From positions 288,001-352,000 of the forward strand of contig CAWJIM010000024.1 of the NCBI GenBank assembly GCA_963842945.1: a DNA stretch of 64,000 bases, given 5' to 3'. Made by a program: the position numbers and the translations under genes. Origin of the DNA: an uncultured Gemmatimonadales bacterium (lineage in GTDB: Bacteria > Gemmatimonadota > Gemmatimonadetes > Gemmatimonadales > GWC2-71-9). How positions within the stretch are numbered: the first letter of the stretch is position 1; the number at the start of each line of letters is the position of its first letter. The notes below the pieces were generated by a model. It was given only the letters and a program-made list of their open reading frames with translations, had not been told where the DNA came from and searched no databases. Positions 8,358 to 37,918 of this stretch are shown here, piece after piece.

Positions 8358-9872
8358 ATGGCGACGATACGGCAGCCCGACCGGGAGGTAGCCGAGTCAG
8401 CGCCGCTCCGCACGACCAACGGTCAGCCGGTTTCCGTGGTGCACGTGACGGCAGAGTACTACCCGTACGCCCGTATCGGGGGTCTGGCCGAAGCGGTGAG
8501 CGGTCTGGCCAATTTCCAGCGCGCAGCCGGACTGAACGTCGCGGCGATTCTTCCCCTCTATCGCACGGTCCGTGATGTCGAGCCCGACCTCGAGCCGGTG
8601 GGTCAGCCTTTCATGGTCCCGATGGGCACCCACACCGAGGAAGCGCGCGTGTTCCGGGTGTCCGGCGCCAGCGCCGGGCCCCAGGTCTTCTTCATCGAGC
8701 ACCTGGATTACTTCAACCGACACGGGATTTATGGCGAAAACGCCATAGACTATCCGGACAACGCCCGACGCTTCGCCTTCTTTGCGCTGGCGGCAGTGAC
8801 GGCGCTGCCTCGGCTGGTTCCGGGAGCAGTACTCCTCCACGCCCACGACTGGCACACCGCGCTGGCGCTGGTCTATCTCCGCACGCTCCTGAAGGCTCGA
8901 TTCACTGCGCCGGTCACCGGGGTGCTCTCGGTCCACAATCCAGGCTACCAGGGGCACTTTCCGCCTGACGTCATGCCGCAGATCGGGCTGCCCTGGGAGC
9001 TGTACAACTGGCAACAGCTGGAGTGGTACGGCAAGGTCAATTTTCTGAAGGGCGGACTGGCGTTCGCCGACTTCGTCACCACGGTCAGCCCTACCCAGGC
9101 CGAGGAGCTCCGGACACCGGGCGGCGGTTTCGGCTTGCAGGAGGCATTCATCTGGCTGGCCGATCGCTTGGTGGGAGTCCTCAACGGCATTGATCAGCAC
9201 GCGTGGAACCCCGCCAAGGACTCGCAGATCACCGCCCAATACTCGGCTCAGAATCTGGAGGGAAAGCGCCGTTGCAAGGCTGGGCTGCAGCGATCCTTCG
9301 GGCTGCCGCAACGGCGAAAGGTTCCGCTCTTCGGAATGACCGGTCGCATGGTCACTCAGAAGGGGCTCGATCTCATACTTCAGAGCCGTCAGCTGCTGGA
9401 GACCGACGCCCAGTTCGTGTTTCTCGGCAGCGGTGAGCAGAAGTATGAGACCGCGCTGGTGGAGCTGGCCTCCTCGGCGCCGGATCGCATTGGCGTGCAG
9501 CTCGACTTTACCGACCGGTTGGAGCACCGGCTCATGGCCGGAGCCGACATCTTCCTGATGCCCTCGTTGTACGAACCCTGCGGCCTCACCCAGATGCGGG
9601 CTCAACGCTACGGCTCCCCACCCATTGTGCGCCACGTGGGCGGTTTGGCCGATACGGTGGAAGATTCGGTGACGGGGTTCGCCTTTGACGGCTACACGCC
9701 GGAAGCCTTCCAGGAGGCTACTTTTCGCGCCCTGGACTGCTTCAATCATCCTTCCACCTGGCAGACGATCATGCGTCAAGGCATGGCTCGGGACTTCAGC
9801 TGGGAGCGATCCGTGGCCACCTATCTCGACGTATATCGGCGCGCCGTCGCCCGGACTGCGGCCTCGGCGTGA
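8358..9872 (+). CDS. glgA: Glycogen synthase (GT5)
   Basis: E..PYARIGGLA (KxGGL-like), HAHDWHT, HNPGYQG, QKGLDL, MPSLYEPCGLTQM. Confidence 0.93.
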   Translation: MATIRQPDREVAESAPLRTTNGQPVSVVHVTAEYYPYARIGGLAEAVSGLANFQRAAGLNVAAILPLYRTVRDVEPDLEPVGQPFMVPMGTHTEEARVFRVSGASAGPQVFFIEHLDYFNRHGIYGENAIDYPDNARRFAFFALAAVTALPRLVPGAVLLHAHDWHTALALVYLRTLLKARFTAPVTGVLSVHNPGYQGHFPPDVMPQIGLPWELYNWQQLEWYGKVNFLKGGLAFADFVTTVSPTQAEELRTPGGGFGLQEAFIWLADRLVGVLNGIDQHAWNPAKDSQITAQYSAQNLEGKRRCKAGLQRSFGLPQRRKVPLFGMTGRMVTQKGLDLILQSRQLLETDAQFVFLGSGEQKYETALVELASSAPDRIGVQLDFTDRLEHRLMAGADIFLMPSLYEPCGLTQMRAQRYGSPPIVRHVGGLADTVEDSVTGFAFDGYTPEAFQEATFRALDCFNHPSTWQTIMRQGMARDFSWERSVATYLDVYRRAVARTAASA

Positions 9873-11566
9873 GCACGCGCTCGATGGATTTCGTGTTTAC
9901 CCTGCACAGCCACCTACCGTACGTGCTGAACCACGGGCGGTGGCCCCACGGCAGCGATTGGCTGTGTGAAGCGGCGCTCGATACCTATCTCCCGCTTCTG
10001 GAGATCCTCCAGGGACTCGAAGCCGATGCAATTCCCGCCCCCGTTACCATCGGATTCACGCCCGTTCTCGCCAATCAGCTCATCAATCCCACGTTCGTCT
10101 CCGAAATGGAGACCTTCTTCGAGCAGCGGATCTCCGCGTGCGATGAGGCGCCGTCGTCCCTGGGCAAGACCAGCGAGAGTCACCTTGTCCCTCTGGTGCG
10201 CTACTGGCACGACCGATTGGTCCGGCTGCGCGAGCTGTTCCACGCGGTGGGGCAGGACATCATTGGCGCGTACCGTGCCCTGGAGGCCGCAGGCCGGCTG
10301 GAGATCATCGGCTCGGCCGCCACTCACGGCTACCTGCCGCTGCTCGCTCGAGACGAAAGCATTCGGCTTCAGCTGGCGGTAGGTGTGTCCGAGCATCGCC
10401 GGATATTTGGACGATCGCCCAGCGGCTGCTGGCTGCCCGAATGCGCCTATCGGCCGAGAGGGCCCTGGGAGCCATGGCCCACGGCACCAAGGACCGGAAT
10501 GCGTCGGGGGATCGAAGAACATCTGGCCGATGCCGGCTTTCAATTCTTCTTCGTCGATGCTCACCTGGCGGCGGCGGGCAGACCGCTTGGCCTCTCGGGT
10601 GATCCGGCGGGCGATCCCACGGTCCACGCTCCACTCACCCGGCCAATGTCCACCGAGGCACTGCGGTCCCCTTATCGGGCTTACCGGGTGGCCCACGGGC
10701 CGGTGGCCGCCTACGTCCGTGACCCTAAAGCCTCCATGCAGGTGTGGAGTCGGTTTGAAGGCTATCCCGGCGACGAGTGGTATCTGGAGTTTCACAAGAT
10801 GCGCTGGCCCGGAGGACTCAAGTTGTGGCGGGTGAGCGGGCCCGGCGTCGATCTGGGCGAGAAGCAGCCCTACAACCCGGAAGGCGCGGCAGATCGCGCC
10901 CGGGGACACGCGGAGCATTTCGCGCATCTGCTTGCAGGGATTGCCGCAGGTCAGTCGCAAAACCGCGACGGCGTGGTGGTGGCGCCCTTCGACACCGAGC
11001 TCTTCGGCCACTGGTGGTTCGAGGGACCCATGTTCTTGGGCAATATGTATCGAGCGCTGGTGCGGCAGCGGGAGATGATCTCTCCCGCTACTGGTTCTCG
11101 GCACCTGCGGGAACATCCGCCTCGAGCCGCGATCAGGCTTCCCTGGGGCTCCTGGGGTGCCAACGGTGATAGCAGCATGTGGCTGAGCCAGCATACCGCG
11201 TGGACCTGGGAGCGGCTCTGGCCGCTCGAGCAGTCGTTCTGGGACGTGGCCCCCAGCAGCATCGGGTCAACCAGCGCCCGACCAGTTCTGGCGCAGGCGG
11301 CTCGGGAGCTGCTGCTCGCCCAGTCGTCCGACTGGCAGTTCATCATCTCGACCGGCGCCGCCGCCGATTACGCCGAACAGCGCATCCGGCAGCACTGCGC
11401 GGACGCCGAAGAGCTGATTGCGGCTCTGTCCGCCGGTAACGACTCCCAGCTGGAGAGTGCGCAGCGCCGGGCGGAAGAGCTGGGACAGCGGGACCAGTTG
11501 TTTCCCAATGTTATTCCGGCCATTGCCGCCGCTCTGGGCGGATCGCGCTCCCTCGTAGTCGGATAA
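9869..11566 (+). CDS. GH57 1,4-alpha-glucan branching enzyme (DUF1957 type)
   Basis: LHSHLPYV, ATHGYLPL, WLPECAY (nucleophile), PFDTELFGHWWFEG (acid/base), ARELLLAQSSDWQF. Confidence 0.92.
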   Translation: MSTRSMDFVFTLHSHLPYVLNHGRWPHGSDWLCEAALDTYLPLLEILQGLEADAIPAPVTIGFTPVLANQLINPTFVSEMETFFEQRISACDEAPSSLGKTSESHLVPLVRYWHDRLVRLRELFHAVGQDIIGAYRALEAAGRLEIIGSAATHGYLPLLARDESIRLQLAVGVSEHRRIFGRSPSGCWLPECAYRPRGPWEPWPTAPRTGMRRGIEEHLADAGFQFFFVDAHLAAAGRPLGLSGDPAGDPTVHAPLTRPMSTEALRSPYRAYRVAHGPVAAYVRDPKASMQVWSRFEGYPGDEWYLEFHKMRWPGGLKLWRVSGPGVDLGEKQPYNPEGAADRARGHAEHFAHLLAGIAAGQSQNRDGVVVAPFDTELFGHWWFEGPMFLGNMYRALVRQREMISPATGSRHLREHPPRAAIRLPWGSWGANGDSSMWLSQHTAWTWERLWPLEQSFWDVAPSSIGSTSARPVLAQAARELLLAQSSDWQFIISTGAAADYAEQRIRQHCADAEELIAALSAGNDSQLESAQRRAEELGQRDQLFPNVIPAIAAALGGSRSLVVG

Positions 11567-15443: not shown

Positions 15444-15944
15444 CTACTTCAGGCGTCGGTCATTCCTCGCCGGCGGCCACGCACCCAACAACCGGCGCAC
15501 CACTACCAGCTCACCAATATGGTAAGCGGCATGGTCGGCAGCCAGCAAAATCTCCCGAAGATACGTCTGGCCTTCGCCGTGGGGGATCCGGGCTTCGAGA
15601 GTGATCTTGGGATCTTTACTCAGGTCCTGCAATCCGGCCCGATCTCGAAGAAACTCCCGGACGCTCGTGTCCCAAGCAGTAGAGTCCGGCGGTGAGGCTG
15701 AGGATGGCCAGTAATCATCCGGCCACTTGAGCTCGCGGTACTTGGGATTGCGGCAGAAATCCAAGATGTCGGCCTGGGTAATCCGGAGGTGCTCGACCAG
15801 CTGCCACGGGGAGTAAGGCAGACTCGCCGGATTGGTTCCCTGCAAATGAACCGGCAAATCGGTCACGGCCGCCTCGAAGCTGATATGCGCGTCCTCCCAG
15901 CTCAACAGCTTCGTCAGGTGTTCTCGGATACTCGAATCGGCCAC
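15444..15944 (-). CDS. DinB family protein
   Basis: PYSPWQLVEHLRITQ and DHAAYHIGE His triad. Confidence 0.88.
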   Translation of the reverse strand: MADSSIREHLTKLLSWEDAHISFEAAVTDLPVHLQGTNPASLPYSPWQLVEHLRITQADILDFCRNPKYRELKWPDDYWPSSASPPDSTAWDTSVREFLRDRAGLQDLSKDPKITLEARIPHGEGQTYLREILLAADHAAYHIGELVVVRRLLGAWPPARNDRRLK

Positions 15945-15947
15945 GGC

Positions 15948-16536
15948 TCACTCCGGATTGGATTTCGGGCCGCTCTCCAACGCGCCGCGCAGCGCTCGGA
16001 ATGCACGCGCCAGATCGGGCAACTGGTGGTTCGCATTCAACCCGCTGGGGTTGGGCAGGACCCACAAGCGCGCTCTCGCCGATCACTTCCTGCTGGCGTC
16101 CCATAACGGCTTTGGGCCGGTCGAACGCTGTACGATAGGCGCCGATTCCAACTACCGCCACCCAACGCGGACAGTAGCGCACGACCTTTCGCTCGAGTCG
16201 CCTTCTGCCTGACCGCAACTCGTCGGGGGATAGCTCCGCTGCCGTCGCGGTGGCCCGCGCGACCAGATTGGTGATGCCCAGGCCTTCCTCCAGGAGCAGA
16301 TGCTCCTCCCAGGGACTTACCAGCCGGTGAGTAAATCCGGCGGCGTACAGTGCCGGCCAGAAGCGATTTCCCGGCCGAGCGAAGTGGTGGCGCGTGGCTC
16401 CGGAGTAGAGCCCGGGATTGATACCGCAGAACAACACCTCGAGATCCGGACGGATCAGGTCCGGAACCGTGCGGCCTACGGCAGCCGCGACCTCAGCCTT
16501 GGTAGGCCGGGGGAAGCTCGAGGGACCATTCACCAC
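15948..16536 (-). CDS. mug: G/U mismatch-specific DNA glycosylase (frameshift near 16070)
   Basis: VLFCGINPGLYSG..HHFARPGNRFW and GITNLV; after the shift WVLPNPSGLNA. Confidence 0.9.
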
Positions 16537-16538
16537 GC

Positions 16539-16895
16539 TCAGAGGAGAGTCAGCAGGATCGTCAGAATGAAAGCCGAGATCCACGACTTGAGATAGACGC
16601 CGCGGGCCTGGCGTCTGACTGAGGAGAGCTCCAGAGGATCGCTGATGTGCTCGGGGCCCGTATCCATGTCACGCTGACCGCGTGCGGCGAGCTTCACTCA
16701 GGTGCGTTCCCGGGCCTGAAAGAACCCCAGTGCGGCGGCCCAAAGCGGAACGATGAGCAGCAGCCTCCATCCGCGCGCCGCATCAGTATGGATCAGCATC
16801 GCCGCGGCTACCAGGCTGGCGGTGAGGAGCACGACGCCGAAGGTGAGCCGCTTACGACGCTCATGGGGACCGATGTTGGCGGTGGCGGTGGTCAT
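16539..16895 (-). CDS. Small membrane protein (YgaP/DUF2892-like N-terminus) with in-frame TGA; candidate selenoprotein, 118 aa
   Basis: The 65-aa ORF ends FFQARERT-TGA (16698-16700), but the frame continues VKLAARGQRDMDTGPEHISDPLELSSVRRQARGVYLKSWISAFILTILLTLL to TGA at 16539-16541, 2 nt before the mug GTG start. Confidence 0.75.
16670..16700 (-). promoter_or_regulatory. Putative bacterial SECIS element
   Basis: UGA + 18 nt + GGUC: UGA GUGAAGCUCGCCG CACGC GGUCA GCGUG, a 5-bp perfect stem with a GGUCA loop. Confidence 0.65.
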
Positions 16896-16917
16896 CGAGA
16901 TCCGATCGCGGCCGGCA

Positions 16918-17472
16918 CTACCCTGCCGGCTCTGCCGGCCGACCCGGAGCGATCCTCTTCTCTGCCCGACCCTTCACGTAGGCATAGATCGCCTGAATTT
17001 GGTCAGGGCTCAGCGTCCCTTTGAATGCGGGCATTCCGCGATCGGGACGCCCCTGACTCACAACCTGGCCGAACTTCTCCGGCGTAGCGACCGGACCCCC
17101 GGGAGCCAGCGATACCAGCAGATTGGCCGCCACCGGATTGGGCAGCACATCCTGGCCGTGGCACCGGGCGCAGTTCACGCTGTACTGCCGCCACCCTTCG
17201 TACTCGGTCTGGCTCACCTTGGGGGCATTTGCCGGCTGATTCGCTTCCGCCTTCTGCGGCGCGGTCGGGGGAGTATCGACGGCGGATGACTGGGACGGCG
17301 TGATCGGAGGGGTGGCAACTCCGGTATCAGGAGTGATAGCGGTGTCGACCGGGACTTGTGGTGCACCGCTGTCGATCGGCGCCGGCCCGCTCTCCGAATC
17401 CGACGCCCGGGACCCGCAACCTGCCAGGAGGATCAGCCCCGACAGCAACGCCACGCCAATCGGCCGCCTCAT
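16918..17472 (-). CDS. Monoheme cytochrome c lipoprotein
   Basis: Lipobox LAGC, Pro/Thr-rich linker, heme motif CARCH, axial Met in GMPAF. Confidence 0.88.
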   Translation of the reverse strand: MRRPIGVALLSGLILLAGCGSRASDSESGPAPIDSGAPQVPVDTAITPDTGVATPPITPSQSSAVDTPPTAPQKAEANQPANAPKVSQTEYEGWRQYSVNCARCHGQDVLPNPVAANLLVSLAPGGPVATPEKFGQVVSQGRPDRGMPAFKGTLSPDQIQAIYAYVKGRAEKRIAPGRPAEPAG

Positions 17473-18246
17473 CCGCCGGATCTCACGGCTGGACGCCCCG
17501 GATGAATCTTGGCATCACTCCGACCTTTCACATACGAGTAGATCGCCTCGATCGTGGGCATCTCCATACCCAGAGAACACCATGAGGGCATGCCCTTGGG
17601 CGGGCCGGCCGGCGCAGACCGTCTGGACGAACAGCTCCTTGGTGTTGATGGGGCCGTCCGGCTTGAGCGACACGATGAGGTGCGGCGCGATGGTCGTTCC
17701 CTGCGCGTCCTCGCCGTGGCAACGCGCGCAGTTCAGGTTGAATTGCTTCCAGCCGTCGTAAACCTGCTGGGGAACCGTATCGAGCGGCGCCGTGTGGTAA
17801 GGATCGCGCAGGGGCGCATCGGCCGCGGCTGTCTGCGAGGGCGCGGCTGCGCTCTCCGCCGGCTTGGGGGCGCTGTCGGGCCGTGGAGCGGCCGCCTCAA
17901 CAGTGGTATCAGGACGCTGAGCGCTGGCCTGCGCTGCAGGTTTGGGCTTGGCCGGCCGGGGGGCCGGCTTCGGCGCAGCCGGCTTGGTGGCGACTGCTTT
18001 GGCGGTATCGGCGCGAACACCGGTCGATTCCGGCCGGCTTACGCCGGAGGTGTCCCGCATCTGAGCGTTGGTGTCGCTCGATGTACTGACCGCAGCGTCG
18101 GCGCCTGAGGTCGGGGTCGTATCCCGCGACACCACACCGGAGCGCTGTTCGCCCCCGCAGCCCGCGAGGCCGGCCAGCACGAGCACGCCTGTCAGTGAGG
18201 CCTTCCATCCCCGCAAAGTCCAATGCTTCCGGCAAGCACCAATCAT
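17469..18246 (-). CDS. Monoheme cytochrome c lipoprotein, paralogue (frameshift near 17595)
   Basis: LAGCGG lipobox, Pro/Ala/Lys linker, CARCH; shifted tail WCSLGMEMPTIEAIYSYVKGRSD; stop overlaps the next start (ATGA at 17469-17472). Confidence 0.82.
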
Positions 18247-18402
18247 GTGAATGAACCCCTCCTCTAGTGTGGCCGTCCAGCGCGTCGAGTGAGCTAAAGA
18301 TTGTCTGCTCGCCCTGGTTGCTAGGTGACGCAGGTCACGAGAACGGTGCAGGAATTCAGACCCCAAATTATTATCCCGGCATGACGCAGAATCCGAACTG
18401 CT

Positions 18403-19267
18403 GTGACGTTGGGACTGGTGCAGATGCGCTGCACACCCGAGCCCGTCCGGAACATGGCCGCCGCCGTTCAGGGGGTGCGGGACGCGGCGGCACGTGGAGC
18501 CCAGATCGTCTGCCTCCAGGAGCTGTTCCGCAGTCAGTACTTCTGCCAGACCGAAGACCACCGCTGCTTCGATTTGGCCGAGCCGGTGCCGGGACCCTCA
18601 ACCGAGGAGCTGGGCGCGCTGGCCGCGGAGCTCGGGGTGGTCATCGTGGCGTCACTGTTCGAGAAACGAGCCCAGGGCATCTACCACAATACCGCCGCCA
18701 TTCTCGATGCCGACGGACGGTACCTGGGGAAATACCGGAAGATGCACATACCGGATGACCCCCAGTACTACGAGAAGTTCTACTTCACGCCCGGCGACCT
18801 GGGCTTCCGCTCCTGGGACACCCGGTTCGGCCGCATCGGCGTACTGGTGTGCTGGGATCAGTGGTATCCCGAGGCGGCCCGGCTGACCGCGATGAGTGGC
18901 GCCCAGATTCTGTTCTATCCCACCGCCATCGGCTGGCTACCGGCCGAGAAGGAAGAGCACGGCGCACAGCAACAGGCCGCCTGGGAAACCATCCAGCGAA
19001 GCCACGCCATTGCCAATGGGGTCTACGTCTGCGCGGTGAATCGGGTGGGATTCGAGGGAGCGTCGGACGCGGGGAATCGAGTTCTGGGGCGGCAGCTTTG
19101 TCTCCGATCCGGGAGGCCGGGTGATCGCAAAGGGAGGCACCGGCGAAGAAGTCCTGATCGCGCGGTGTGACCTCTCCAAGGTGGACGCCAGTCGGACGCA
19201 CTGGCCGTTCCTGCGGGATCGCCGGATAGACGCCTACGCCGACCTCACCAAGCGCTATCTCGACTGA
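18403..19267 (+). CDS. aguB: N-carbamoylputrescine amidase (carbon-nitrogen hydrolase; frameshift near 19070)
   Basis: Catalytic E-K-C: LQELF, YRKMHIPDDP, VCWDQWYPE; shifted tail FWGGSFVSDP...HWPFLRDRRIDAY. Confidence 0.87.
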
Positions 19268-26587: not shown

Positions 26588-28267
26588 TCAACCGCTCACG
26601 TCGTTCACCATGGGCAGATCGACGCCCCGCTCCTTTGCCGTTTCGATGGCCAGATCGTACCCGGCATCGGCATGGCGCATCACTCCGGTACCGGGATCGG
26701 CGGTAAGAACCCGGCGGAGCCTTCGGTCGGCTACGTCGGTCCCATCGGCCACAGCCACCATGCCGGCATGAATGGAATAGCCGATGCCAACGCCACCGCC
26801 GTGGTGAAGCGAGACCCAGCTGGCGCCACAGGCGGTATTCAGCAGCGCATTCAGCAGCGGCCAATCGGCGATCGCATCGGAGCCATCCTTCATTCCCTCC
26901 GTCTCGCGATTGGGTGAGGCCACCGATCCGGTGTCCAGGTGATCCCGACCGATCACGATCGGAGCGCGCACCCGTCCAGTTTTGACCAGCCAGTTGAAGC
27001 GCTCGCCCATCTCGGCGCGCTCGCCGTACTCCAGCCAGCAGATCCGGGCGGGCAACCCCTGGAACGCGACCCGCTGCTGGGCCTGCCGGATCCAGCGTGC
27101 CAGTCCTTCCTTCTGAGGGAAGGTGTCCAGCACGGCCTGGTCGGTTGCGGCGATGTCGGCAGGATCTCCCGAGAGTGCAACCCAGCGAAACGGGCCGGCA
27201 CCCCGGCAGAAGAGTGGTCGGATGAACTCCGGCACAAAGCCGGGAATGTCGAAGGCCGACTGCATGCCACGGTGGTCGGCCACCTGTCCGCGAAGATTGT
27301 TGCCGTAATCGAACACCACGGCTCCGCGGGCCTGGAGATCCAGCATGGCCTGCACATGCACCGCCATCGAATCGAGGACCTTGGCTTCGTAGGCCTGCGG
27401 GTCCGCCTCGCGAAGCTGGCCGGCCTGCTCCAGATCGAGGCCGGTCGGGATGTAGCCCAGCCTGAGATCGTGCGCCGAGGTCTGGTCCGTCACCACATCG
27501 GGAACAACCCCACGGCGAAGCAGCTCGGGCAGCACTTCGGCGATGTTCCCGACCAAGCCAACCGAGAGCGCCTGCCCTCGCGCCCGGGCCGACTCGACCT
27601 GCTGGAGGGCGGTGTCCAGGCTGGTCTCCAATCGGTCGCAGTATCGGGTAGCGACCCGCCGGCGAATCCTCTCCTCGTCAACGTCTACCCCTAAAAAGGC
27701 GGCGCCGTTCATGGTGGCTGCCAGCGGCTGCGCCCCACCCATGCCGCCCAGTCCGCCGGTCACCACCAGCCGGCCCTTCAGGGTGCCCCCGAAGTGCTGT
27801 CGGGCGCATTCGGCGAAGGTCTCGTAGGTGCCCTGCAGAATTCCCTGAGTTCCGATGTAGATCCAGGAGCCGGCGGTCATCTGGCCATACATGGTGAGGC
27901 CCAGGGCTTCGAGCCGGCGGAACTCGTCCCAGGTGGCCCACCGTGGCACCAGGTGAGCGTTGGCGATCAGGACGCGAGGCGCCTCTTCGTGAGTGGTAAA
28001 CACGCCGACCGGCTTCCCGCTCTGAACCAGCAGCGTCTCGTCGTTCCCCAGACGGCGAAGCGTGGCGACGATGCGCTCGTAGCATTCCCAGTTGCGGGCG
28101 GCCTTCCCTCCTCCGCCGTACACGATGAGCTCATCCGGCCGCTCTGCCACCGCGGGATCCAGGTTGTTCATGAGCATCCGAAGGGCGGCCTCCTGGTGCC
28201 AACCACGGCAGGAGAGGGCCGATCCTCTCGGGGCAGAGATCTGATGGGGCTGCGTCAGCATCGACAT
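26588..28267 (-). CDS. hutU: Urocanate hydratase
   Basis: [57 protein letters not shown]. Confidence 0.96.
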
Positions 28268-28357
28268 AGGGCGCTCTGGAGATGGCCGGATCAAGGCTAG
28301 CCTTTCGCAGAATGGCCTGCAACCTTTTGGGCCGCCGTACGATCCAATCCCCCCGCG

Positions 28358-28930
28358 ATGACCGAACTCGGCCTGGGAGTGGCGACTCTGGAGCACGAAC
28401 CGACCGGCAGGACCGATCCGGATGCAGTGGACGCCACGCTCGCCGCCAGCGGAGATGCCAGTGCGTTCGAGCGGCTGTACCGGACGCACGTGCCCAAGGT
28501 GTACGGACTGATTCGCCGCATGCTCAACGACGACGATGCAGATGAAGTCGCCCAGGACATTTTCGTACGGGCCTGGCAGAAGCTCGGCACCTTTCGGGGC
28601 GAGGCCGCGTTTGGAACCTGGCTTCACCGACTGGCGGTAAACGTGATCCTGGCCCGGAGGGAGACGTTGGGCACCCGGCGCAAGCGGTACGTGGAGGGCG
28701 ACATGGTGCTGGAGACGGTTCCCAGCCGCCGGGCCACACCGGAGATGTCGATGGATTTCGAGGCAGCCATGGAGCGGCTGCCCGATGGAGCCCGGGAGGT
28801 GTTCGTGCTACACGATGTAGAGGGCTACCGTCATGAGGAGATTGCCCAGATGCTCGGCCTTGCTACCGGCACGTCCAAATCCCAGCTGCATCGTGCGCGA
28901 ATGGCGCTGCGTCAGCATCTGGAGCGCTGA
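28358..28930 (+). CDS. ECF sigma-70 factor
   Basis: [42 protein letters not shown]. Confidence 0.92.
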
Positions 28931-28939
28931 GGAGGAATC

Positions 28940-29638
28940 ATGACCCAGGATCCCTGGACCGATCGGCTGTCGGAATACCTCGACGGAGAGCTGCCCGAAT
29001 GGGAGCGGCATGCGCTCGAGTCGCACCTCGAGAGCTGCGCCGAATGCTCGCTGATCGTGTCCGATCTTCGGCGGGTGGTGCGCCGCGCGCGTACGCTCAA
29101 GAATCCTCCTCCGGCCACCGATCTCTGGCCCGGCATTGCCGCTCGAATCGGGGCAGGGATATCCAAGTCTCAGGACGTGGTGGATCTCGGCGCTCAGCGC
29201 CGAGTGCGCCGCCGCTGGGCGTTCTCCCTGCCTCAGCTTGCTGCGGCCAGCATTGCCTTGATGACCGTTTCGGGCGGAGCCGTCTGGTTCATGAGCGGGA
29301 CTGCCCGCCAGTCGGTGGTGTCAGCTCCCGCCCCGTCGAGCCCGCCCGAGGGCACTCCCGCCGTCAGCGTGGCAATGAAGCCCAATGCCTCTCAAAGCTA
29401 TGCCGCTGCCGTGGCCGACCTGGAGCGGGTGCTGGCCGAGGGGCGGGGCAAGCTCGACTCCACCACGGTCAGGATCATCGAACAAAATCTGGCCGCCATC
29501 GATCGGGCCATTGCTGAGGCACAGCGCGCACTCGACGCCGACTCAGCCAACCTGTACCTCAACACTCACCTGGCCGAAACGATGCGGCGTAAACTGGACC
29601 TGCTGCGCCAGGCCGCCGCCCTCGTTCCGGTGAGCTGA
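28940..29638 (+). CDS. Zinc-finger (ZAS) anti-sigma factor
   Basis: LSEYLDGEL, HLESCAEC (HxxxCxxC), one TM helix. Confidence 0.88.
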   Translation: MTQDPWTDRLSEYLDGELPEWERHALESHLESCAECSLIVSDLRRVVRRARTLKNPPPATDLWPGIAARIGAGISKSQDVVDLGAQRRVRRRWAFSLPQLAAASIALMTVSGGAVWFMSGTARQSVVSAPAPSSPPEGTPAVSVAMKPNASQSYAAAVADLERVLAEGRGKLDSTTVRIIEQNLAAIDRAIAEAQRALDADSANLYLNTHLAETMRRKLDLLRQAAALVPVS

Positions 29639-29650
29639 AAGGATCTCCAC

Positions 29651-30553
29651 GTGCTGTTCGCCCTCCTGACCGGTACCCTGGCGCTGTCACCCATTGTCCA
29701 GGCGGATACCACGCTCAACGCGGTGCGGGGTCAGCGCCTGGACGTCAATGCCTATGCGGGCGAGGTCACGGTGCGCGCGTGGAACAGAAACGCGGTTCGG
29801 ATCGAGGCCAGTGGCGCCGATCAGGATCAGCTCGAGATTTCCAGCAGCGCGACCGCCATCAGTATTCGGACCCATGGGCGACACGGCCCTCCCGAGGAGA
29901 TCACGCTTCGGATCAGCGCGCCCGCCTGGATCACGCTCAGCCTGAGTGGGGTCAATACCAACGCCAAGGTCGAAGGGATCCGGGCACCCATCTCGGTCGA
30001 GACGGTCGAGGGCGAAGTGGATGTCACCGGTGGGGAGAGCCTGATCTCGCTGCGTTCGGTTCAGGGGTCGGTCCGGCTGCGGGGAGCCAAAGGCCGGATC
30101 AACGTGAACTCGGTGAACGAGGACGTGGAAGTAGCGAACAGCTCCGGCGATGTCGCGGCCCAAACGGTAAACGGAGAGATCCTGCTGCAGGGGGTAAATG
30201 CTTCGAGCGTGGATGCCAACACGGTGAACGGCGACATCTCCTACTCCGGTCCGATCAGGAGCGGCGGCCGCTATGCGCTCTCAACCCATAACGGAGACCT
30301 GACACTGACCGTACCGGAGGGGACGAGTGCCGGGGTGACGGTTTCCACCTTCAGCGGCGATTTCGAGTCCGAATTCCCGGTCCCCCTGCGGGGCACCCGG
30401 AAAGGGAAAGGGTTCAACTTCACTCTGGGCTCGGGCAGCGCGCAGGTCACCCTCGAGTCGTTCCAGGGGACCATCCAGCTGGTTCGTCCGGGGAGCGAAG
30501 AAGACCCGGCCCGCCGTAAGCGAGACCATGACCGGGATCATGACGAAGACTAG
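29651..30553 (+). CDS. DUF4097 beta-strand repeat protein
   Basis: Signal peptide and repeated TVNGD/TVEGE/SVQGS motifs. Confidence 0.85.
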   Translation: MLFALLTGTLALSPIVQADTTLNAVRGQRLDVNAYAGEVTVRAWNRNAVRIEASGADQDQLEISSSATAISIRTHGRHGPPEEITLRISAPAWITLSLSGVNTNAKVEGIRAPISVETVEGEVDVTGGESLISLRSVQGSVRLRGAKGRINVNSVNEDVEVANSSGDVAAQTVNGEILLQGVNASSVDANTVNGDISYSGPIRSGGRYALSTHNGDLTLTVPEGTSAGVTVSTFSGDFESEFPVPLRGTRKGKGFNFTLGSGSAQVTLESFQGTIQLVRPGSEEDPARRKRDHDRDHDED

Positions 30554-30971
30554 CCCACTACCTGCACTAAACCGTCGCATTTTGACGGGCTCTGCTCCGG
30601 GGGTGAGAACCGGCACACTCCCGTCCAGGAACCGGGCAGATTTGTAACACCGGCGATACAAACCTCTCGACAACACGGCTTACACTCAAGATTCAGACTG
30701 AGCCGCCGGCTTCGTACCTCGCTCCGGTTCTGTTGCCTAAGCGATTATTCGCTCGCCATTTAGCTCGCCGGACCTTACCTAGCTCTCTATGACCTGGGGA
30801 TGAGCTCCGGGTTGACAGCAGCGGGGTGCAACCCCCGTCGGGTCGGCTCCGAAAGATGGGGCAAGCTGTAAAGAAATCGGCGGCTGGTGGACGGTACAAA
30901 GCCGGGCACGTGTCTTGTACTTCGGGCTGATCGGTAGTCCCAGACCGAACCTCAGCCCGGAGTCTCGAGCA

Positions 30972-31529
30972 ATGCATGCCCTGTTGAAGAACGCCCTTGT
31001 GGGTACAGTCGCGCTTGCGCTGGCCGGCTCCAGCACCGCGTCGGCCCAGGTAGGACTGACCTCGAACGTTGCCACCGTTGCGCTTACCGCGACGAAGGCA
31101 GCCACCCTGACGGTGAGCACGAACGTCGCCACCGCGACCCTGGCCAACATCACGGACAACTCCACGGCCAACCAGTTCACCCCGGTAAGCCTGACCACCG
31201 ACTGGAACCTGAACGCCGGCTCCTCGGTGCGGATGATCGGCTGGTTTGCCACCCCGGCGCAGGCGCTGGTGAACGGTACTGACCTGATTCCCTCCTCGAA
31301 GGTCGAGGGTCGGGTTGGGGCCACGGCGTTTGCCGCCTTCACCAACGGTGCCGTGGGCGGCGTCGGCGTCGCCGGCGGAAGCCTGCAGCTCTTCAGCCAG
31401 GCAGTGGCCGCGGGCAGCTACTTCGGTACCCGCACCGACCAGCTGGATCTCCGGTTGAACCTGACCGGCACGACCACCATGGCCGGCAACTACACCGGTA
31501 CGCTCAACCTCCAGGCGATCGTTCAGTAA
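30972..31529 (+). CDS. Secreted pilin-like protein (putative major subunit)
   Basis: Signal peptide ending ASA-Q, alternating N-terminal strand VALTATK, Thr/Ala/Gly-rich, C-terminal AGNYTGTLNLQA. Confidence 0.7.
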   Translation: MHALLKNALVGTVALALAGSSTASAQVGLTSNVATVALTATKAATLTVSTNVATATLANITDNSTANQFTPVSLTTDWNLNAGSSVRMIGWFATPAQALVNGTDLIPSSKVEGRVGATAFAAFTNGAVGGVGVAGGSLQLFSQAVAAGSYFGTRTDQLDLRLNLTGTTTMAGNYTGTLNLQAIVQ

Positions 31530-31557
31530 GCCACGAACGAAATACCTGGGCCTAGCA

Positions 31558-32120
31558 ATGGGCAGCCGTACGTTCGGTCTTCTCCTTCGCCCTGAGCGCC
31601 TTCCTGGTGCTCGGGGCGAAGGAGCTTTGTGGGCAGGCCCGGATCATCTCCTTGGCGGCAACGTCTCCTGCCGACCTCTCTCTGGTGATCACCTCCGGCG
31701 CAATACAGACCATAGCCGGGGTAACCGATAATGCGGTTAACAGCTTCCCGTCTCCGGTGGTCCTTCAGACCACCTGGAGCGTCAACCCGGGGCAGACCAA
31801 CACGGTGAATCTGGTGGCCTATTTCCTGGTTCCGGCACAGGCGCTGGTTGGCGGGACGACACAAATCCCCTCCAGCCGAGTGCTGGCCCGGATGTCGACC
31901 GGGCTTCCGACCGCGTTTACTGCGATTACGCAGAATGCCTTCGCCGGAGTGGGTACCGCCGGCGGCAGCCTGCAACTCTACTCGGTCGACGATCAACGGA
32001 AGCAACAAAAATACGAGTCGCACTGACAACCTCGACTTGCAGCTGAATCTGGTAGGGTTCCCCACCCTGCCTGCCGGCTCGTACACCGGCGTGCTCAACC
32101 TTCGGGTGATTACCCAGTGA
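31558..32120 (+). CDS. Second pilin-like paralogue (two frameshifts)
   Basis: Shares PAQALV, IPSS, GGSLQL, RTDNLDL and AGSYTGVLNL with the upstream gene. Confidence 0.65.
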
Positions 32121-32874
32121 AGCCCGACAGCCGAACAGCCTGGCTGAGTCTGGTGGTCCTCTGCGGGGCCTTCCTGCCGCTCCGGCCGATCGTGGCGCAG
32201 TCGGTGAGTCCGCCCATCGCTGAGTATCAGGAACGAGCCCGCTCCAGCTTCCAACTCAAGAATGCGTCGATTTTCCCCCTCAGCGTCGTGCTCGAAGTGC
32301 GCGGCTTCCGCATCTCCGAAGCGGGCGACGTGATCGACGTTCCGCTCGATACCAGCCATATCCACGTGAAGCTTTCGGAGATGAGCTTTCGGCTCCCTCC
32401 GAAGGGAAGCCGGACGGTTTTTTACGAGGCCACAGCGACAGTCTTCCCGCCTGGTTCACGATCCTGAGTGCAATGACGGGAGCGCGAACGGATAACGGGC
32501 TGAACGTCCGCATTCTTCTGCCTCACGTGGTCTATCTGAATCAGAAGCAACCGCTCCGAAAGGAAGAGGTTGTGATTCGCCGGTTCGAGCAGGATCCCGG
32601 CACGAACAAGGTCCGGGTCCAGCTGGAGAATCTGGGGCCTCACCTGGGCCGGGTTCATCAACTGACCGTGAGTACTCACGACAAGGTCGGACAACCGGGT
32701 GGCGGGTTCCCCCTCATGCCTCACAGCCGTCGTTGGGCCGAGCTCGAGTGGGATAGTCCGGCTCAGCCGATGCGCTTGAGCATCCGCTTCGCCCGTTTCA
32801 CCGTCGATACAGTCCTGACGCCCGTAGCGGCGTCGCTCGCCGCCGATTCGAGCGCGAGCGCTCTCCGGCCGTGA
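32117..32874 (+). CDS. Putative periplasmic pilus chaperone (PapD-like pattern; frameshift near 32445)
   Basis: Signal peptide, then SVSPPI, FQLKN, FRLPPKGSRTV, ILLPHVVY, VQLENLG; GTGA coupling with both neighbours. Confidence 0.55.
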
Positions 32875-34515
32875 CCCGCTCGGTCCGCCAATCCCGATTG
32901 GCGGGGAAGGCCATCCTTGCCGCGGTTCTGCTGTTCTTTCCCGCCATCATCGCTCAGGCTCAGACGGTAGTTGAGATGCAGGGTGGCGGCTCCTCGCTCT
33001 CGGGCGGCTACGGAGCAACCGCCAACTTCTGGCGATCCGGGGTGGACGGCTGGGTGGGGTTGGGATATCTGGACGGCTTTCGCGCGGGCGCTTTCCTGAG
33101 AAAGGCCGCCGGCCATGGCGACACCCTCGGGTGTCGGTAACAGCGCGCTGGTCGTGCGGCTTCCCACCGACATCTTCACTCCAGGATACAATCTGCTGGT
33201 CCAGGGACTCAGCTACGCAGGCGGAAATCGAGCGGACCTCCTACCTGGTCTTCGGCGGTGCCAGCTCGGCGGGAGTCGGAGCACCGGCCTTCCAGCCGAC
33301 CAACATCGAGCAGCCAATGGGCGCCGTGTTTCTACGGCACTCCGTCAAGCCCAACCTCTATCTCACCACCAGCGCCATCTTTGCTCGTCAGCAGACGGTC
33401 CTCCCGGGTGATCGAATGGCAGCCCTCTCCCGATCTCACGACCGGCTTCGTGATCGGGATGGGTTCCGATCGCCCCTACGCCGCGTCCAGTGTGTCCGTC
33501 CGCGAGGGCCGGGTCGGGCTGATGGGCTCCTATGTTTGGAATCCGGATCGGTTCAGGAGAGCGCCGGTTCCGACCCCGAATCAGACCGAGGTAGACCGGG
33601 AAAACCTGACCTTTACCTACGATCTCAGTCCCGAGTTCTCCGTCGGATTCGCCCGGCAAAACTTCGTGCAGGATTCGGCGGATGCCCAGCCCCCGATACG
33701 CGCCGTGGGAAACACCGTGTTCGCTGGAGGTCGCTGGCGTGAGCTGCGGCTGACGGCAGGCGTGTATCACTCAGAGTCTCAGGATATCTCCAATCTCAGC
33801 TCGTACCTTGCGGTGGGACGCGAGCTGACTCGCTGGCTCGACGCCGAGATGTTTCTCCTGCAAAGTCGCCCGGAAGGACAGCCTACGGTTACTACTCCGC
33901 TGGCAAACCTCAGGTGGCGTCTGTCCCCCCATTTCGGGTTAAGCCAGCAGATCGTCTTTCACCATGGAGAGCCGACGGTGCTGTGCGGCGCCAGCCTCAG
34001 GACCAGCTTCGGAGAGTTTGGGCTGGACTATCAGATCGTGCATCAGCCGCTCCAGCCGTTGAGCCCCTTCCGCAGCGCCTTGAATCTGACCGCGCGGCTG
34101 CAGCTGGGAAGCTACTCGACCAATCTCGGCACCTACGTCCGGCCCGGATGGAACAGTGGATTACTCCGCCTCGGGGAGCACGTTCCTGTACATGGGAAGC
34201 TTTGGCGGAATCCAGCCGCAGCAGATTGGTGGGGCCATGGCTCGGTACGTGGTTCAGGGCACCGTTCGCGATGAGTCAGGCAATCCGGTCGAAGGCGCTG
34301 CGGTGAAGCTGAATGATGGGGTGGTGTATACCAACTCAGCTGGGAGAGTTCTTTCTCCGGGTTAAGCACCCGGAGCACTACACACTGGCAGTGGCGACCG
34401 AGGATTTCCTGCTGCCCGGGACGCTGGGAAGTGGTAAGCGCTCCAACTACGGTGGTGGCAAGGCAATGAGAAGCAAGTCAGCCCAGTCGTGATCGTGCTC
34501 CGCCGCACGCCCTGA
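32871..34515 (+). CDS. Putative outer-membrane usher-like beta-barrel with C-terminal carboxypeptidase-regulatory-like domain (several frameshifts)
   Basis: Signal peptide, amphipathic beta strands, C-terminal VVQGTVRDESGNPVEGAAVKL..TNSAG. Confidence 0.5.
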
Positions 34516-34521
34516 CCTGCG

Positions 34522-34987
34522 TCACTTCACGTCCAACAGCTCGACGTCGAACACCAGCGTTGCGCCGGGTGGGATGTCTGGTGGAGCACCGGCGGTTCCA
34601 TACCCGAGATCCGGCGGAATGACGAGCTTGCGACGCCCGCCGACCTTCATGCCGGCTACGCCTTCATCCCACCCGGCAATAACCTGCCCGGCGCCGAGGG
34701 CAAATCCGAAGGGCTGGTTGCGGTCTCGGCTGCTGTCGAACTTCTCTCCATTGGGCAGCCAGCCGGTGTAGTGCACCGATACGGTTTTCCCCGCCGTTGC
34801 GGTTGTACCGCTCCCGACCGCCACATCCTGGTACCGTAATCCGGAGGGCGTCCTGGTCATGGCGGTGGTATCTACGCCGAGAGCAGCACTGAAGCCGCCG
34901 GCGGCAGGCGGCGCGCTCACGATCCGCCTTGCCGGTGCAAGCGGCCAGGGCGAGTAGTACCAACACGGGCACTTTGTTCGGTTTCAT
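34522..34987 (-). CDS. FKBP-type peptidyl-prolyl isomerase, lipoprotein (frameshift near 34920)
   Basis: [53 protein letters not shown] lies in the upstream frame. Confidence 0.92.
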
Positions 34988-35042
34988 TTGGGATCCTGGG
35001 CCTGAATGCGCGAATGGCCGCCAGCTTGAGCGGCCCTTCCAA

Positions 35043-35116
35043 TCGGGACGGCGGGATTTGAACCCGCGACCCCTGCAACCCCATTGCAGTGCGCTACCGG
35101 ACTGCGCCACGTCCCG
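35043..35116 (-). tRNA. tRNA-Pro (GGG)
   Basis: CGGGACGTGGCGCAGTCCGGTAGCGCA CTGCA-ATGGGGT-TGCAG ...GGTTCAAATCC...GTCCCGA; CCA not encoded. Confidence 0.95.
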
Positions 35117-35375
35117 AGACTGATCGAAGAGGCGGAATTGTAGCCCCAGCACTTCGGCCACGCTACCCCTCCTGTGACCCGAACATGCCCTCAGCCGAAC
35201 GGTACTTCGGCGGTCGCTTTCTTCAGCTCCCACTCCATAGTTAGCCACCGACAGCCCCACGGCGGCCCGCGACTTGCGATTACGGCCCGATACGGCAAAA
35301 AACCGGGCTCCCCAGCCCGGCATTTCGTGGTATGGTGCCGCATGGTGCGGCGCCAAGCGGCAGCGGAGGAGCCCA

Positions 35376-35549
35376 ATGAGCCATCAGGACGAGCGGCCGT
35401 GGGAAACTGGTGGAGACCTTCCCTGGGAGAGCTCGGAGGACGAGGATCAGACCGACCACACCTGGCGGGGAGATCTTCACTTCGACGATTGGCCGGAGAA
35501 TCTGGCTGGACCCGAGTACTGGCTCTACAAGAAACAGCGCGATGAGTAG
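35376..35549 (+). CDS. Small acidic Trp-rich hypothetical protein (57 aa)
   Basis: GGAGGAG RBS, MSHQDERPWE...GPEYWLYKKQRDE, own terminator. Confidence 0.7.
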   Translation: MSHQDERPWETGGDLPWESSEDEDQTDHTWRGDLHFDDWPENLAGPEYWLYKKQRDE

Positions 35550-35565
35550 CGCGAGAGCGTACCGG

Positions 35566-35603
35566 TGAGAGGGGCCGAACGGTGTTCGGCCCCTCTCAGT
35601 TTT
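35566..35603 (+). terminator. Intrinsic terminator
   Basis: 15-bp perfect stem TGAGAGGGGCCGAAC/GTTCGGCCCCTCTCA followed by GTTTT. Confidence 0.85.
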
Positions 35604-35695
35604 CAGACCTCAATAGACGCTAATCCCTCGCCGATAGTCCCCGCATGCGATAATACCCTTCGGTAAATCTTTGGTATTACGCGACTTAGACCCTG

Positions 35696-35723
35696 TTGAC
35701 CTGAGCTAAGTCATTGCTATTTT
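35696..35723 (+). promoter_or_regulatory. Possible sigma-70 promoter
   Basis: TTGACC-16nt-TATTTT with TG extension, in an AT-rich intergenic region. Confidence 0.4.
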
Positions 35724-35841
35724 TCAGCTTACCTGGTGGAACCAGTACGGGCCCGAGATGGTTTAAACCCTCGTGTCGGTGCCAGGAATGAGACTCGGAG
35801 GGCTGGCCGAGCCGGCCCATTTCAATGAATCGGAGATCGGA

Positions 35842-36883
35842 ATGTCAGACACGATGGAGCAGGCTGAGGCTACCGCCCAGCCGAAAGCGTGGGACCCGTT
35901 TCAGCTGATGGACCGAATGGATGAGGAGGCGCTCCGCCGGGAACTGGAGGGGGTGGCCAGCACCGACCTGGTCTATGTGGTGCGGGAGGGAGGACAGGAA
36001 GTCGTTGGGCTCTCCAAGACCGGAGTCGACGAATGTTGCATGGCGCTGGTCTCCCAGGGTCAGGTCATTCGGGAGGAAGATCTCCAGTACGAGTTGATCG
36101 GCGAGGGCGAGGCACGGGAGGCGCTCTTCAAGGTCAAGGCCGCGCGGTTTGCGGTTTCACCCTCGGGCCAGGACGTCCGTCTCGATCAGGTGATCGGGGT
36201 CAAGCGTCAGGCCCTCTACTATGAGGCCGTTCCGCTGGACCTGGATGCCAAGGTTCCCAGCAGGAAATATCGGGGCAAGACCTATCGCGACCTCCTCGAG
36301 CAGCGAGGAAGGCCGGGACTATTTGGGCTGGATGGCGGAGAACTTCAACGAGCCGGAGATCCGGGAATTCGTTCGGAAAATTCTCGCCGGTGAGGACGTG
36401 GTTGCTCGCCGAGGGCCCCAGCTCAATCCACACTGGTATGAGCACGGCGCCATGAAGGCGGCGCGAAATGCGCGGTTTCGTCTGATTCCAGGCAACGTGC
36501 GCGCTCAGGTAATGGCAACGGCGCGCCAATCGGGACAAACCCGGGTCGTCGAGGCGCAGCCGGGTACCATCCCCAGTGCTGCCCGGGCATTTCCGCTTCC
36601 GGCGAGCGTGGCTGCTCGCAGTGAGGTGCTTGCCCCTACCGGTCGGATAAGCGACCGGACTGAGGCGGTAGGGCGGCCGGGTCCCTATGCGCCCACCGAA
36701 AAACAGGTGGCGTTCTACCAGCGGCTGGCCGCTTCGCCGGTGTTCAGTGAGGAAGAGCGTGAGCGTGCGCTCGATTGGCTCGCGACCAAGGCCACTCGGC
36801 AGACGATCAAGGACCAGATCGACTGGCTCAAGCGCCAGGTGGAAACCCGCAAGCCCAGGACGGCCGGCGAGTCGGCAGCGTAG
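35842..36883 (+). CDS. Hypothetical protein, possible single-strand annealing/recombination protein (frameshift near 36300)
   Basis: GGAG RBS; GLSKTGV, KAARNARFRLIP, internal KYRGKTYRDL..DYLGW, C-terminal PTEKQVAF. Confidence 0.6.
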
Positions 36884-36900
36884 GGCTCGGCAGTGAAAGA

Positions 36901-36941
36901 GAAGGGTGAAAGAGCGAGGAATCTTTCACCCTTCATTTTTT
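36901..36941. terminator. Intrinsic terminator between convergent genes
   Basis: GAAGGGTGAAAGA...TCTTTCACCCTTC followed by ATTTTTT. Confidence 0.8.
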
Positions 36942-37918
36942 ATGCTTATGTCCTCGCGGACTGCCAGCGCCACGCCCGAAATGATCGCGCTTCCACCCAG
37001 CGCGGTGTGCCACCCAATCGACTCTCCCCCGAAGGCGACTCCCACCAGCACTGCAATCAGCGGAGTGACCAGGGGAATCATGAGCACGCCGGTAACCGCT
37101 GGTATGGCGGATAAGCCAGTAGTACATCAAAAAAGCGATCACCGAGCCCAGAATGGTGAGATACGCCAGCGCTCCAAGCGCCATTGGCGTCCAGCGGAAG
37201 GCCAGCGGGCTTCCCTCGAGCAGCATGCCACCTATCAGGAGGGGCAAGCATCCGCCCAACATCTGGGTTCCCGCCAGCACCGCCGGCTCGATGTGGGTCC
37301 CCCGGGCTTTGACCAGCACACTGGCGTGAGCGGTGGCCAATGCCGCCACGATGATGCCGGCACTGGCGGCAAACGCCTGCGGACCTCCTGTGCCAAGCTC
37401 GCCGGAGAACACCACCGCCACGCCGAGCAAACCCAGCAGGACACCGACGATCTTTCGTCGGGTAAGCGGCTCCGCACGCAGATACCGGTGGGCCAGAGGA
37501 AGCCCGAAGAGCGGCACCGTAGCACTCAGCAGCGCAGCCAGAGCCGGACGAGATGTACTGCTCGCCCCAAAAGACCAGCGCATAGTTCACCGTGATGCTG
37601 AGGAATCCGGTATAGGCCAGCAGGCCCCATTCTCCAGCTGAGCGGGCAGCCGAATCCGCTGGATCACGCACGATCCCGCCCAGCAACACCGCCGCAAGGG
37701 CGAATCGAATTCCCGCAAAGGTGAGCGGCGGCAGGTCTCGGAGTCCGAGCTTGATGGCCAGCCAGGTGGAGCCCCAGATCCCAGCCAGGGCAAGCCAGAG
37801 AATGAGAGCTATTCGCCGACGAGGTCGGATCCTTCCGACGATCGCCGGATCGACTCTCGGGCGGACCCAGGTTTGGCAGGCCGCTCCTTCGAGGTTTGCG
37901 GATGTCGGAAGCAGGCAC
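36926..37918 (-). CDS. EamA/DMT family transporter (frameshifted; start approximate)
   Basis: IWGSTWLAIKLGL..PPL.FAGIRF, LVFWGEQYISSG, YLTILGSVIAFLMYYWL. Confidence 0.85.

Follow-up and report, generated by a model that had tools for sequence, protein, structure and literature searches.

A predicted selenocysteine codon between the second and third transmembrane helices of a small membrane protein family in Gemmatimonadota

Does the TGA that closes a short open reading frame (ORF) in a Gemmatimonadales genome end the gene, or does it encode selenocysteine (Sec) in a longer one? In the stretch of 64,000 nucleotides analysed here (the window), a 65-codon ORF at 16698..16895, on the minus strand like the other features of this gene described below, starts with ATG and stops at a TGA at 16698-16700. 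Beyond that TGA the same frame stays free of stops for another 52 codons, up to a second TGA at 16539-16541. A preliminary inspection of the letters (hereafter, the sequence-only reading) had reported both the stop and the open extension, which are borne out at exactly these positions, and had proposed that the UGA encodes Sec in a membrane protein that gene callers truncate. Read through, the frame would give a full predicted selenoprotein CDS of 118 codons at 16542..16895, with UGA as Sec at codon 66, an extent backed by full-length homologues and by codon periodicity on both sides of the UGA.

The layout of the locus accommodates this longer gene. Its ATG start codon (16893..16895) lies 22 nt past the stop (16918-16920) of an upstream ORF encoding a cytochrome c (Pfam Cytochrome_CBB3), and the true terminal stop would be the TGA at 16539..16541, where relatives have TAA, TGA or TAG. 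The downstream neighbour is a gene of the UDG/mug superfamily (Pfam UDG), with a GTG in the mug frame at 16534-16536, 2 nt past the terminal TGA; this GTG matches the earlier claim that the extension fills the gap and ends 2 nt before the mug start. The intergenic space between the cytochrome c ORF and the mug gene is filled by the 118-codon read-through.

The most conventional alternative is that the UGA is an ordinary stop, leaving a two-helix product of 65 residues, and that the 52 codons are a separate GTG-started gene or mere spacer. Gene callers give exactly such a product, and a GTG-started ORF of 52 aa does occupy 16539-16697. Using queries in which the frame was translated with Cys at the UGA, a word-indexed protein search returned 74 matches, 62 of which are entries of 64-77 aa that cover the first half and stop where the 65-codon ORF of the window stops, one of them being that ORF itself. 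These entries are what an ordinary stop would yield; under the Sec reading they would be truncated by gene callers, as had been claimed. The other 12 matches are full length (116-186 aa) and carry at position 66 either Cys (nine) or Trp (three); the three Trp homologues also run past the usual C-terminus, through their terminal TGA, as expected from a gene caller that reads TGA as Trp. When 1.84 billion representatives were searched exhaustively with HMMER, 938 relatives passed E <= 0.001, most of them 117-130 aa long, and in the best 149 of these 938 column 66 is Cys in 142. The in-frame UGA (residue 66, 16698..16700) aligns with this Cys. The existence of hundreds of single homologues of about 120 aa with Cys at codon 66 argues against an ordinary stop, and the homologues show similarity on both sides of a residue that is either this near-invariant Cys (142/149) or a conserved TGA (122/129 loci, see below).

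Codon statistics point the same way. Among 87 unique indel-free Sec forms, the mean entropy at codon positions 1/2/3 was 0.85/0.68/1.47 upstream of the UGA and 0.83/0.58/1.30 downstream of it. A loss of conservation past the UGA was looked for and was not seen: none of the 87 Sec forms has a further stop downstream, frame and length are kept in 87/87, and the codon periodicity is maintained up to a terminal stop that is TAA in 32, TGA in 31 and TAG in 24. The 52 codons past the UGA, with their normal codon periodicity, are by this signal evidently translated. The first 65 residues alone do score better on the Pfam model YgaP-like_TM (19.7 bits, still sub-threshold), a point for the ordinary stop; on the other side, the downstream part alone matched no Pfam family, and the model of the full-length protein is one unit with a pLDDT of 96.6. 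Taken together, we regard an ordinary stop as very unlikely.

A different objection is that the TGA itself is spurious, having arisen either as an error of sequencing or assembly or by a recent nonsense change of TGC or TGT, so that the copy in the window would be an artefact or a pseudogene. The assembly does contain errors, as selA, selB, rpoB and rpoC are all divided between frames, with two single-base insertions in selA relative to a same-genus orthologue. Since rpoB and rpoC are also broken, the breaks in selA and selB are taken as assembly indel errors and probably do not represent gene loss. These errors elsewhere in the assembly are, however, indels and not substitutions, and the same TGA occurs in 121 other loci from independent assemblies. 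It is also found in contigs from two public soil DNA runs that cover 16526-16870 with identical letters at 16698-16700, although these runs may include the source sample. Moreover, the hairpin of the window has a compensatory A-U pair, described below. Contigs from RNA libraries, in which DNA may be present, span 16783-17071 only and end short of the UGA. An error or a fresh mutation at this codon appears extremely improbable.

The distribution of the TGA form was surveyed more widely. In Gemmatimonadota the gene was detected in 30 of 401 genomes, with exactly one TGA inside the match in 26 and none in 4; the phylum tallies over 401 genomes include two that are flagged as unpublished (G057 and G157), and the conclusions are the same without both. 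Further loci came from species-representative genomes (28) and from metagenomes that carried no habitat label (80). Across the 138 loci L023-L160, codon 66 could be scored in 129 and was TGA in 122, TGC in 5 and TGT in 2; among the nine loci left unscored, an earlier reading had given TGA for L040 and TGC for L050. By record title, the TGA carriers are Gemmatimonadales and Gemmatimonadaceae, and TGA forms also occur in metagenome-assembled genomes labelled Anaerolineae/Chloroflexota, Blastocatellia (Acidobacteriota), Methylomirabilota, Rokubacteria and Planctomycetota. A FastTree phylogeny, built for 182 Sec and Cys sequences from 112 columns with residue 66 masked, was poorly resolved; the Sec/Cys label requires 18 changes on it, only 3 of which are forced by well supported branches.

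Decoding of UGA as Sec presupposes dedicated machinery, and the check for it found tRNA-Sec, selA, selB and selD in the source genome. There are two tRNA-Sec genes with anticodon UCA, scoring 70 and 63 bits, which are distinguished by 4 of 98 positions and by unrelated flanking sequence. selA was detected at 287 bits, above the cut-off, selB at 235 bits, 7 bits short of its cut-off of 242, and selD at 366 bits with one in-frame TGA. The selD UGA stands in a G-A-G-U-A-C-K context and is followed by a hairpin that also presents GGUC. Among the other genomes carrying the TGA form, selA is present in 25/25, while it is missing in 1/4 of the Cys-form genomes; as selA occurs in 318/401 genomes across the phylum, this co-occurrence is weak evidence.

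The pair of unlike tRNA-Sec genes leaves room for read-through that does not involve Sec, in which near-cognate suppression or a Cys-charged tRNA resembling tRNA-Sec would place Cys or Trp at residue 66. Both tRNAs nevertheless score above the Rfam tRNA-Sec cut-off, ARAGORN calls both tRNA-SeC, and the genome holds the full selA/selB/selD set. In addition, the loop of the hairpin fits the description of bacterial SECIS elements given in the available part of PMC1088965, and its GGU is constrained in the TGA forms only. Read-through of this other kind is thus very unlikely.

The candidate SECIS element lies shortly after the UGA. Numbered from the U of the UGA, CACGC (nt 17-21) pairs with GCGUG (nt 27-31) around the loop GGUCA (nt 22-26), which gives a SECIS-like hairpin core with a 5-bp stem at 16670..16684; the sequence-only reading had described GGUC on such a stem 18 nt after the UGA, as is indeed the case. 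The E. coli fdhF element presents GGUC at about the same spacing from its UGA. Judged by folding energy, the hairpin does not go beyond chance (z = +0.78 for the 71-nt region, with 161 of 200 shuffles folding as well), but judged by conservation it does. The five core pairs together with GGT at nt 22-24 are complete in 74 of 85 unique Sec forms vs 1 of 7 Cys forms, a control that comprises only these 7 Cys-form DNA sequences and in which the sequences are mutually related. Part of this conservation has another source, since the A-[A/S]-R-G-x-R motif, itself conserved, is encoded where the stem forms, and much of the stem conservation is therefore at the protein level.

The loop is more informative, since its glycine codon can be compared at synonymous sites. 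Among the 85 unique Sec forms the Gly73 codon in the loop is GGT in 78, GGG in 6 and CGT in 1, with GGC and GGA in none, while the control codon Gly80 is GGT in 26, GGC in 32, GGG in 13, GGA in 11 and another codon in 3. In the 6 Cys forms that retain Gly at residue 73, the codon is GGC in 5 and GGT in 1 (GGG and GGA 0). The useful signal of the hairpin is a synonymous-site constraint on the GGU loop that, among the sequences compared, acts in the TGA forms only, and to this extent the candidate SECIS hairpin was upheld.

Covariation added little to this synonymous-site constraint. Within a specified 7-pair structure, the five core pairs can each form in 95-100% of the 85 unique sequences, with hardly any variation. 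Pair 18-30 is G-C in 80, G-U in 3 and A-U in 1, the last being the window itself, where two synonymous substitutions are involved. The covariation score of the 7-pair structure was 0.052, vs 0.037 for shuffles; sliding the partner by +2 gave 0.082, as several pairing registers are open to the GC-repeat sequence. As the pairs hardly vary and the slid control is as good, covariation does not prove the structure, and RNAalifold returned 3 consensus pairs only, with no covariation. A scan of 16400-16900 against Rfam at E <= 10 gave chance-level rows only and no SECIS family.

These data suggest that 16542-16895 on the minus strand is very probably one gene, encoding an integral membrane selenoprotein of 118 residues in which UGA 66 specifies Sec. 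The claim that Sec occupies the position of a conserved Cys is supported by Cys in 142/149 relatives, TGA in 122/129 loci, the GGU constraint and the Sec genes. A ribosome translating this mRNA would meet the UGA at codon 66, with the hairpin 13 nt further on presenting GGU(C) in its small apical loop; this loop would be bound by SelB loaded with Sec-tRNA(Sec), and selenocysteine would be inserted in place of termination. Past the UGA, translation would go on to produce a short helix, a beta-hairpin and the third transmembrane helix before it ended at the real stop, 16539-16541.

In the family of the predicted protein, N7 is invariant, and I8, G9 and R16 are kept at 90% or more, which makes the N-terminal motif N-I-G-x-x-E-R-x-x-R (residues 7-16, 16848..16877), common to the YgaP-like TM domain, the site of the strongest N-terminal conservation. 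In the full-length alignment the best-conserved protein segment is V-K-L-A-A-R-G-Q-R-D-M-D-x-G, after position 66, and residue 66 itself falls inside the best motif of the family, F-Q-A-x-x-x-T-[U/C]-V-x-L-A-x-R-G-x-R-[D/N]-x-D-x-G, in which Q60 is kept in 136 of 150 alignment rows. In 73 of the 74 unique Sec forms listed, N7 and residue 66 are 59 residues apart. Of 133 representatives, 80 have a second Cys 1-3 residues ahead of the N-I-G motif, as do 32 of the 74 unique N-termini of Sec forms, but the protein of the window does not. In databases, the relatives are named 'hypothetical protein' or 'uncharacterized membrane protein', or are nameless. Neither Pfam nor NCBIfam has a model that reaches its cut-off for the 118-aa protein or for 28 homologues, and an NCBIfam scan of the 118-aa protein gave zero families at E <= 10.

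AlphaFold2, run on the full 118 residues with an alignment of 67 sequences, predicted one compact unit (mean pLDDT 96.6, pTM 0.86). In this model a short helix (67-71) directly after residue 66 and a beta-hairpin (74-83) separate the helices of residues 10-36 and 41-63 from that of residues 87-117. Helix 10-36 contains transmembrane helix 1 (about residues 17-36, 16788..16847), and transmembrane helix 2 (residues 41-63, 16707..16775), with F-Q-A at its end, is seen in both the model and the conservation. Transmembrane helix 3 (about residues 100-118, 16542..16598) lies wholly 3' of the UGA; it had been claimed for the extension, and the long hydrophobic helix that the model places at 87-117 agrees with it. 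The N-terminus has four Arg/Lys residues and the loop of residues 61-99 has nine, from which the positive-inside rule predicts that the N-terminus and this Sec-bearing loop are cytoplasmic and the C-terminus is outside.

Comparisons of the structure did not lead to a named relative. Foldseek against the PDB gave no match at E <= 0.001, and a profile search of PDB sequences none below E 0.68. A wide search with VIA-align had a best Z of 7.0, to generic helical bundles, which is within the range for unrelated helical proteins, and these candidates were rejected. With the Cys homologue P0005 as query, the ESM Atlas returned unnamed clusters only, plus a weak structural row of the YgaP family. A structural likeness of P0005 to the fungal membrane domain RAX1_C (TM 0.87) was also observed there.

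The genomic context was also examined. No recurrent neighbour was found by Pfam in the ORFs around 15 related loci together with six ORFs of the window that adjoin the gene; depending on the locus, the neighbours include ABC-F, carbonic anhydrase, Ogt, DUF456, ECF sigma factors, AcrB, ferredoxin-thioredoxin reductase, HMA and others. All-against-all clustering of the neighbouring ORFs was swamped by shadow ORFs, the DNA being GC-rich.

In known selenoproteins, Sec is found mostly at redox-active sites. For this reason the Sec/Cys switch points to residue 66, which is taken as the working nucleophile. Located at the cytoplasmic end of helix 2, Sec/Cys66 would present its selenol or thiol as a nucleophile at the surface of the membrane and could act in redox chemistry or a sulfur/selenium relay, perhaps assisted, in about half of the family, by the second Cys just before N-I-G. 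A role of residue 66 as a working nucleophile in redox or relay chemistry is possible, though on present analysis doubtful. A 2026 review considers that most uncharacterised selenoproteins are probably redox in function (PMC13188914). We put forward, equally tentatively, the fuller reading in which the gene of the window is the founding member of an unrecognized family of small integral-membrane selenoproteins, distant kin of YgaP/DUF2892, where Sec marks the Cys after helix 2 as catalytic, not structural, and provides a selenol that faces the cytoplasm, serves redox or sulfur/selenium relay chemistry and is paired with an N-terminal Cys in some members of the family.

Whether the family had already been catalogued was a question raised at the outset, and no entry for it was found in Pfam, NCBIfam or a recent inventory. 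That 2026 inventory (PMC13188914, Table 1) lists 119 prokaryotic selenoprotein families or subfamilies, each with a domain identifier; none of the 119 fits by name or by its listed Pfam/NCBIfam model, families with only cd or PTHR identifiers having been judged by their names. The available part of the deep-Sep paper describes nine further selenoprotein families, among which there is no comparable membrane protein (PMC12013277). The literature on selenoproteins with DUF2892, YgaP, Gemmatimonadota or transmembrane as terms does not describe the family, though supplementary tables may hold unnamed candidates. Sec decoding as such is textbook; what is new and uncatalogued is the family.

The consequences concern, in the first place, annotation. 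Dozens of public entries of 64-77 aa, deposited in GenBank as hypothetical proteins, are truncated, and the Sec reading restores the 118 residues; the gene affected belongs to a family that is common in soil bacteria and is present in many soil genomes. The list of selenoprotein families would gain a small integral membrane protein, and by name few of the families listed are membrane transporters or permeases. For an uncharacterised membrane family of about 938 representative clusters, the Sec/Cys switch also singles out a working residue, residue 66. If the fuller reading given above is true, it would be the first mechanistic clue for the whole uncharacterised membrane group and would add a widespread selenoprotein to soil Gemmatimonadota.

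How the gene compares with known systems can be considered for its hairpin, for other membrane selenoproteins and for the protein domain that it most resembles. Like bacterial SECIS elements, of which fdhF is the prototype, the hairpin starts soon after the UGA, lies inside the coding region and has a small apical loop containing G, the last being the hallmark of bacterial SECIS elements according to the available part of PMC1088965. It differs in that its core stem is only 5 bp long, without an evident bulged U, and in that Arg/Gly codons of a conserved motif supply its sequence, such that structural and protein constraints overlap. Compared with selD of the same genome, where GGUC stands at nt 36-39, the GGUC of the window's gene (nt 22-25) is 14 nt closer to the UGA.

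Membrane and transporter selenoproteins in the inventory comprise the YeeE/YedE thiosulfate transporter family and a putative mercuric transport protein, and also the ABC transporter permease subunit SaoP, the SO_0444 family Cu/Zn efflux transporter and a cation-transporting ATPase (PMC13188914). With these the family of the window shares a bacterial origin, a Sec/Cys pair and a downstream hairpin. In sequence they are unrelated to it: their Pfam/NCBIfam models gave no match at E <= 0.1 to the protein of the window or to 28 homologues. Judging by names alone, the inventory transporters are many-helix proteins, whereas the protein of the window has three helices and no recognizable transport domain.

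The closest resemblance is to the YgaP-like TM domain (PF11127, formerly DUF2892), to which the sequence-only reading had likened the protein. The resemblance extends to the motif, the helices and a following Cys, but by profile scores the kinship is sub-threshold. Both have N-[VIM]-G-x-x-[DE]-R-x-x-R at the N-terminus, followed by two transmembrane helices and a conserved Cys directly after helix 2; in the protein of the window, residues 7-16 read N-I-G-P-H-E-R-R-K-R, and helices 10-36 and 41-63 follow the order expected of YgaP-like_TM. Against this, PF11127 scored 17.0 bits with the full protein and 19.7 with the first 65 residues, compared with a cut-off of 25.3 (the weak matches to this model have E 0.00094-0.0065), and among the 28 homologues it gave 1 match, at 17.6 bits. 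hhalign against PF11127 reached a probability of 42% (E 2.6e-4) over residues 5-58, in 46 columns that end before the Cys, and the YgaP-family row of the ESM Atlas, aligned to residues 6-80 of P0005, had a TM of 0.47 by query and 0.76 by row. The source genome has three canonical DUF2892 genes elsewhere, and a whole-genome search with PF11127 recovered them without the window's gene. The two groups also differ in detail. The Cys context is T-[C/U]-V-x-L-A in the family of the window vs C-P-x-Y in the YgaP-like TM domain, and the spacing from the motif Asn to this residue is 59 residues vs 44 in the first DUF2892 alignment row (N4 to C48). Finally, the family of the window has, beyond what the YgaP-like TM domain contains, an additional conserved loop and a third helix.

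The genome to which the window belongs (assembly GCA_963842945.1, G000) carries two genes for tRNA-Sec with anticodon UCA, located at positions 14378-14471 of contig C15 (L001) and 150251-150344 of contig C1 (L002). These differ at 4 of 98 positions and lie in unrelated flanks; the pair could stem from a genuine duplication or from the 6% contamination of this metagenome-assembled genome (MAG). Its selD gene (L020; contig C19, 381780-382700) has an in-frame UGA in the motif G-A-G-U-A-C-K and is itself a selenoprotein gene, with a 3' hairpin that presents GGUC at nucleotides 36-39 after the UGA.

The selA (138515-139839) and selB (8832-10665) genes, both on contig C2, are each split between reading frames, as are rpoB (32519-36960) and rpoC (28044-32343) on contig C23, two of these four long genes being essential. 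Aligned with its orthologue from the same genus, selA shows two 1-nt insertions. Given the four split genes and these insertions, indel errors seem to be frequent in the 24-contig assembly.

Within the window, the mug/UDG ORF (15715-16584, minus strand) spans 289 codons, of which only residues 42-159 match the Pfam profile, and its tail overlaps an adjoining ORF of 166 aa (15444-15944). The true mug stop is probably hidden by another assembly frameshift. Upstream of the predicted selenoprotein gene (16542-16895, minus strand), two ORFs stand in tandem on the same strand, and N-C-A-R-C-H-G, the haem c motif, occurs in both. One (16918-17472) encodes a cytochrome c matching Pfam Cytochrome_CBB3; the other (17515-18561) had no match in a Pfam scan at E <= 1e-6.

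A phylum-wide genome search located the predicted selenoprotein gene in 17 of 147 genera, including the window's own, and in none of the 24 other genomes of that genus. Either the gene is patchily distributed, or the bin's label names a lineage other than the one from which the contig comes. Three full-length homologues among JGI protein entries (P0003, P0004 and P0025) carry Trp at position 66, the predicted Sec site, and read through their terminal TGA, which suggests that their contigs were called under a code with TGA as Trp and that full length was restored by accident. Close behind the homologue stands a gene for a ferredoxin-thioredoxin reductase beta chain in one Methylomirabilota MAG (L074, 4842-5321, minus strand) and an ORF with a heavy-metal-associated (HMA) domain in one Planctomycetota MAG (L080, 4445-4906, minus strand), both on its downstream side; each neighbour is a single case and they form no pattern.

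At the structural level, the ESM Atlas model of P0005, a homologue with a natural Cys form, aligns with Pfam RAX1_C, a membrane domain at the C-terminus of RGS-domain proteins in fungi, with a TM score of 0.87, a likeness that may reflect just a common three-helix arrangement.
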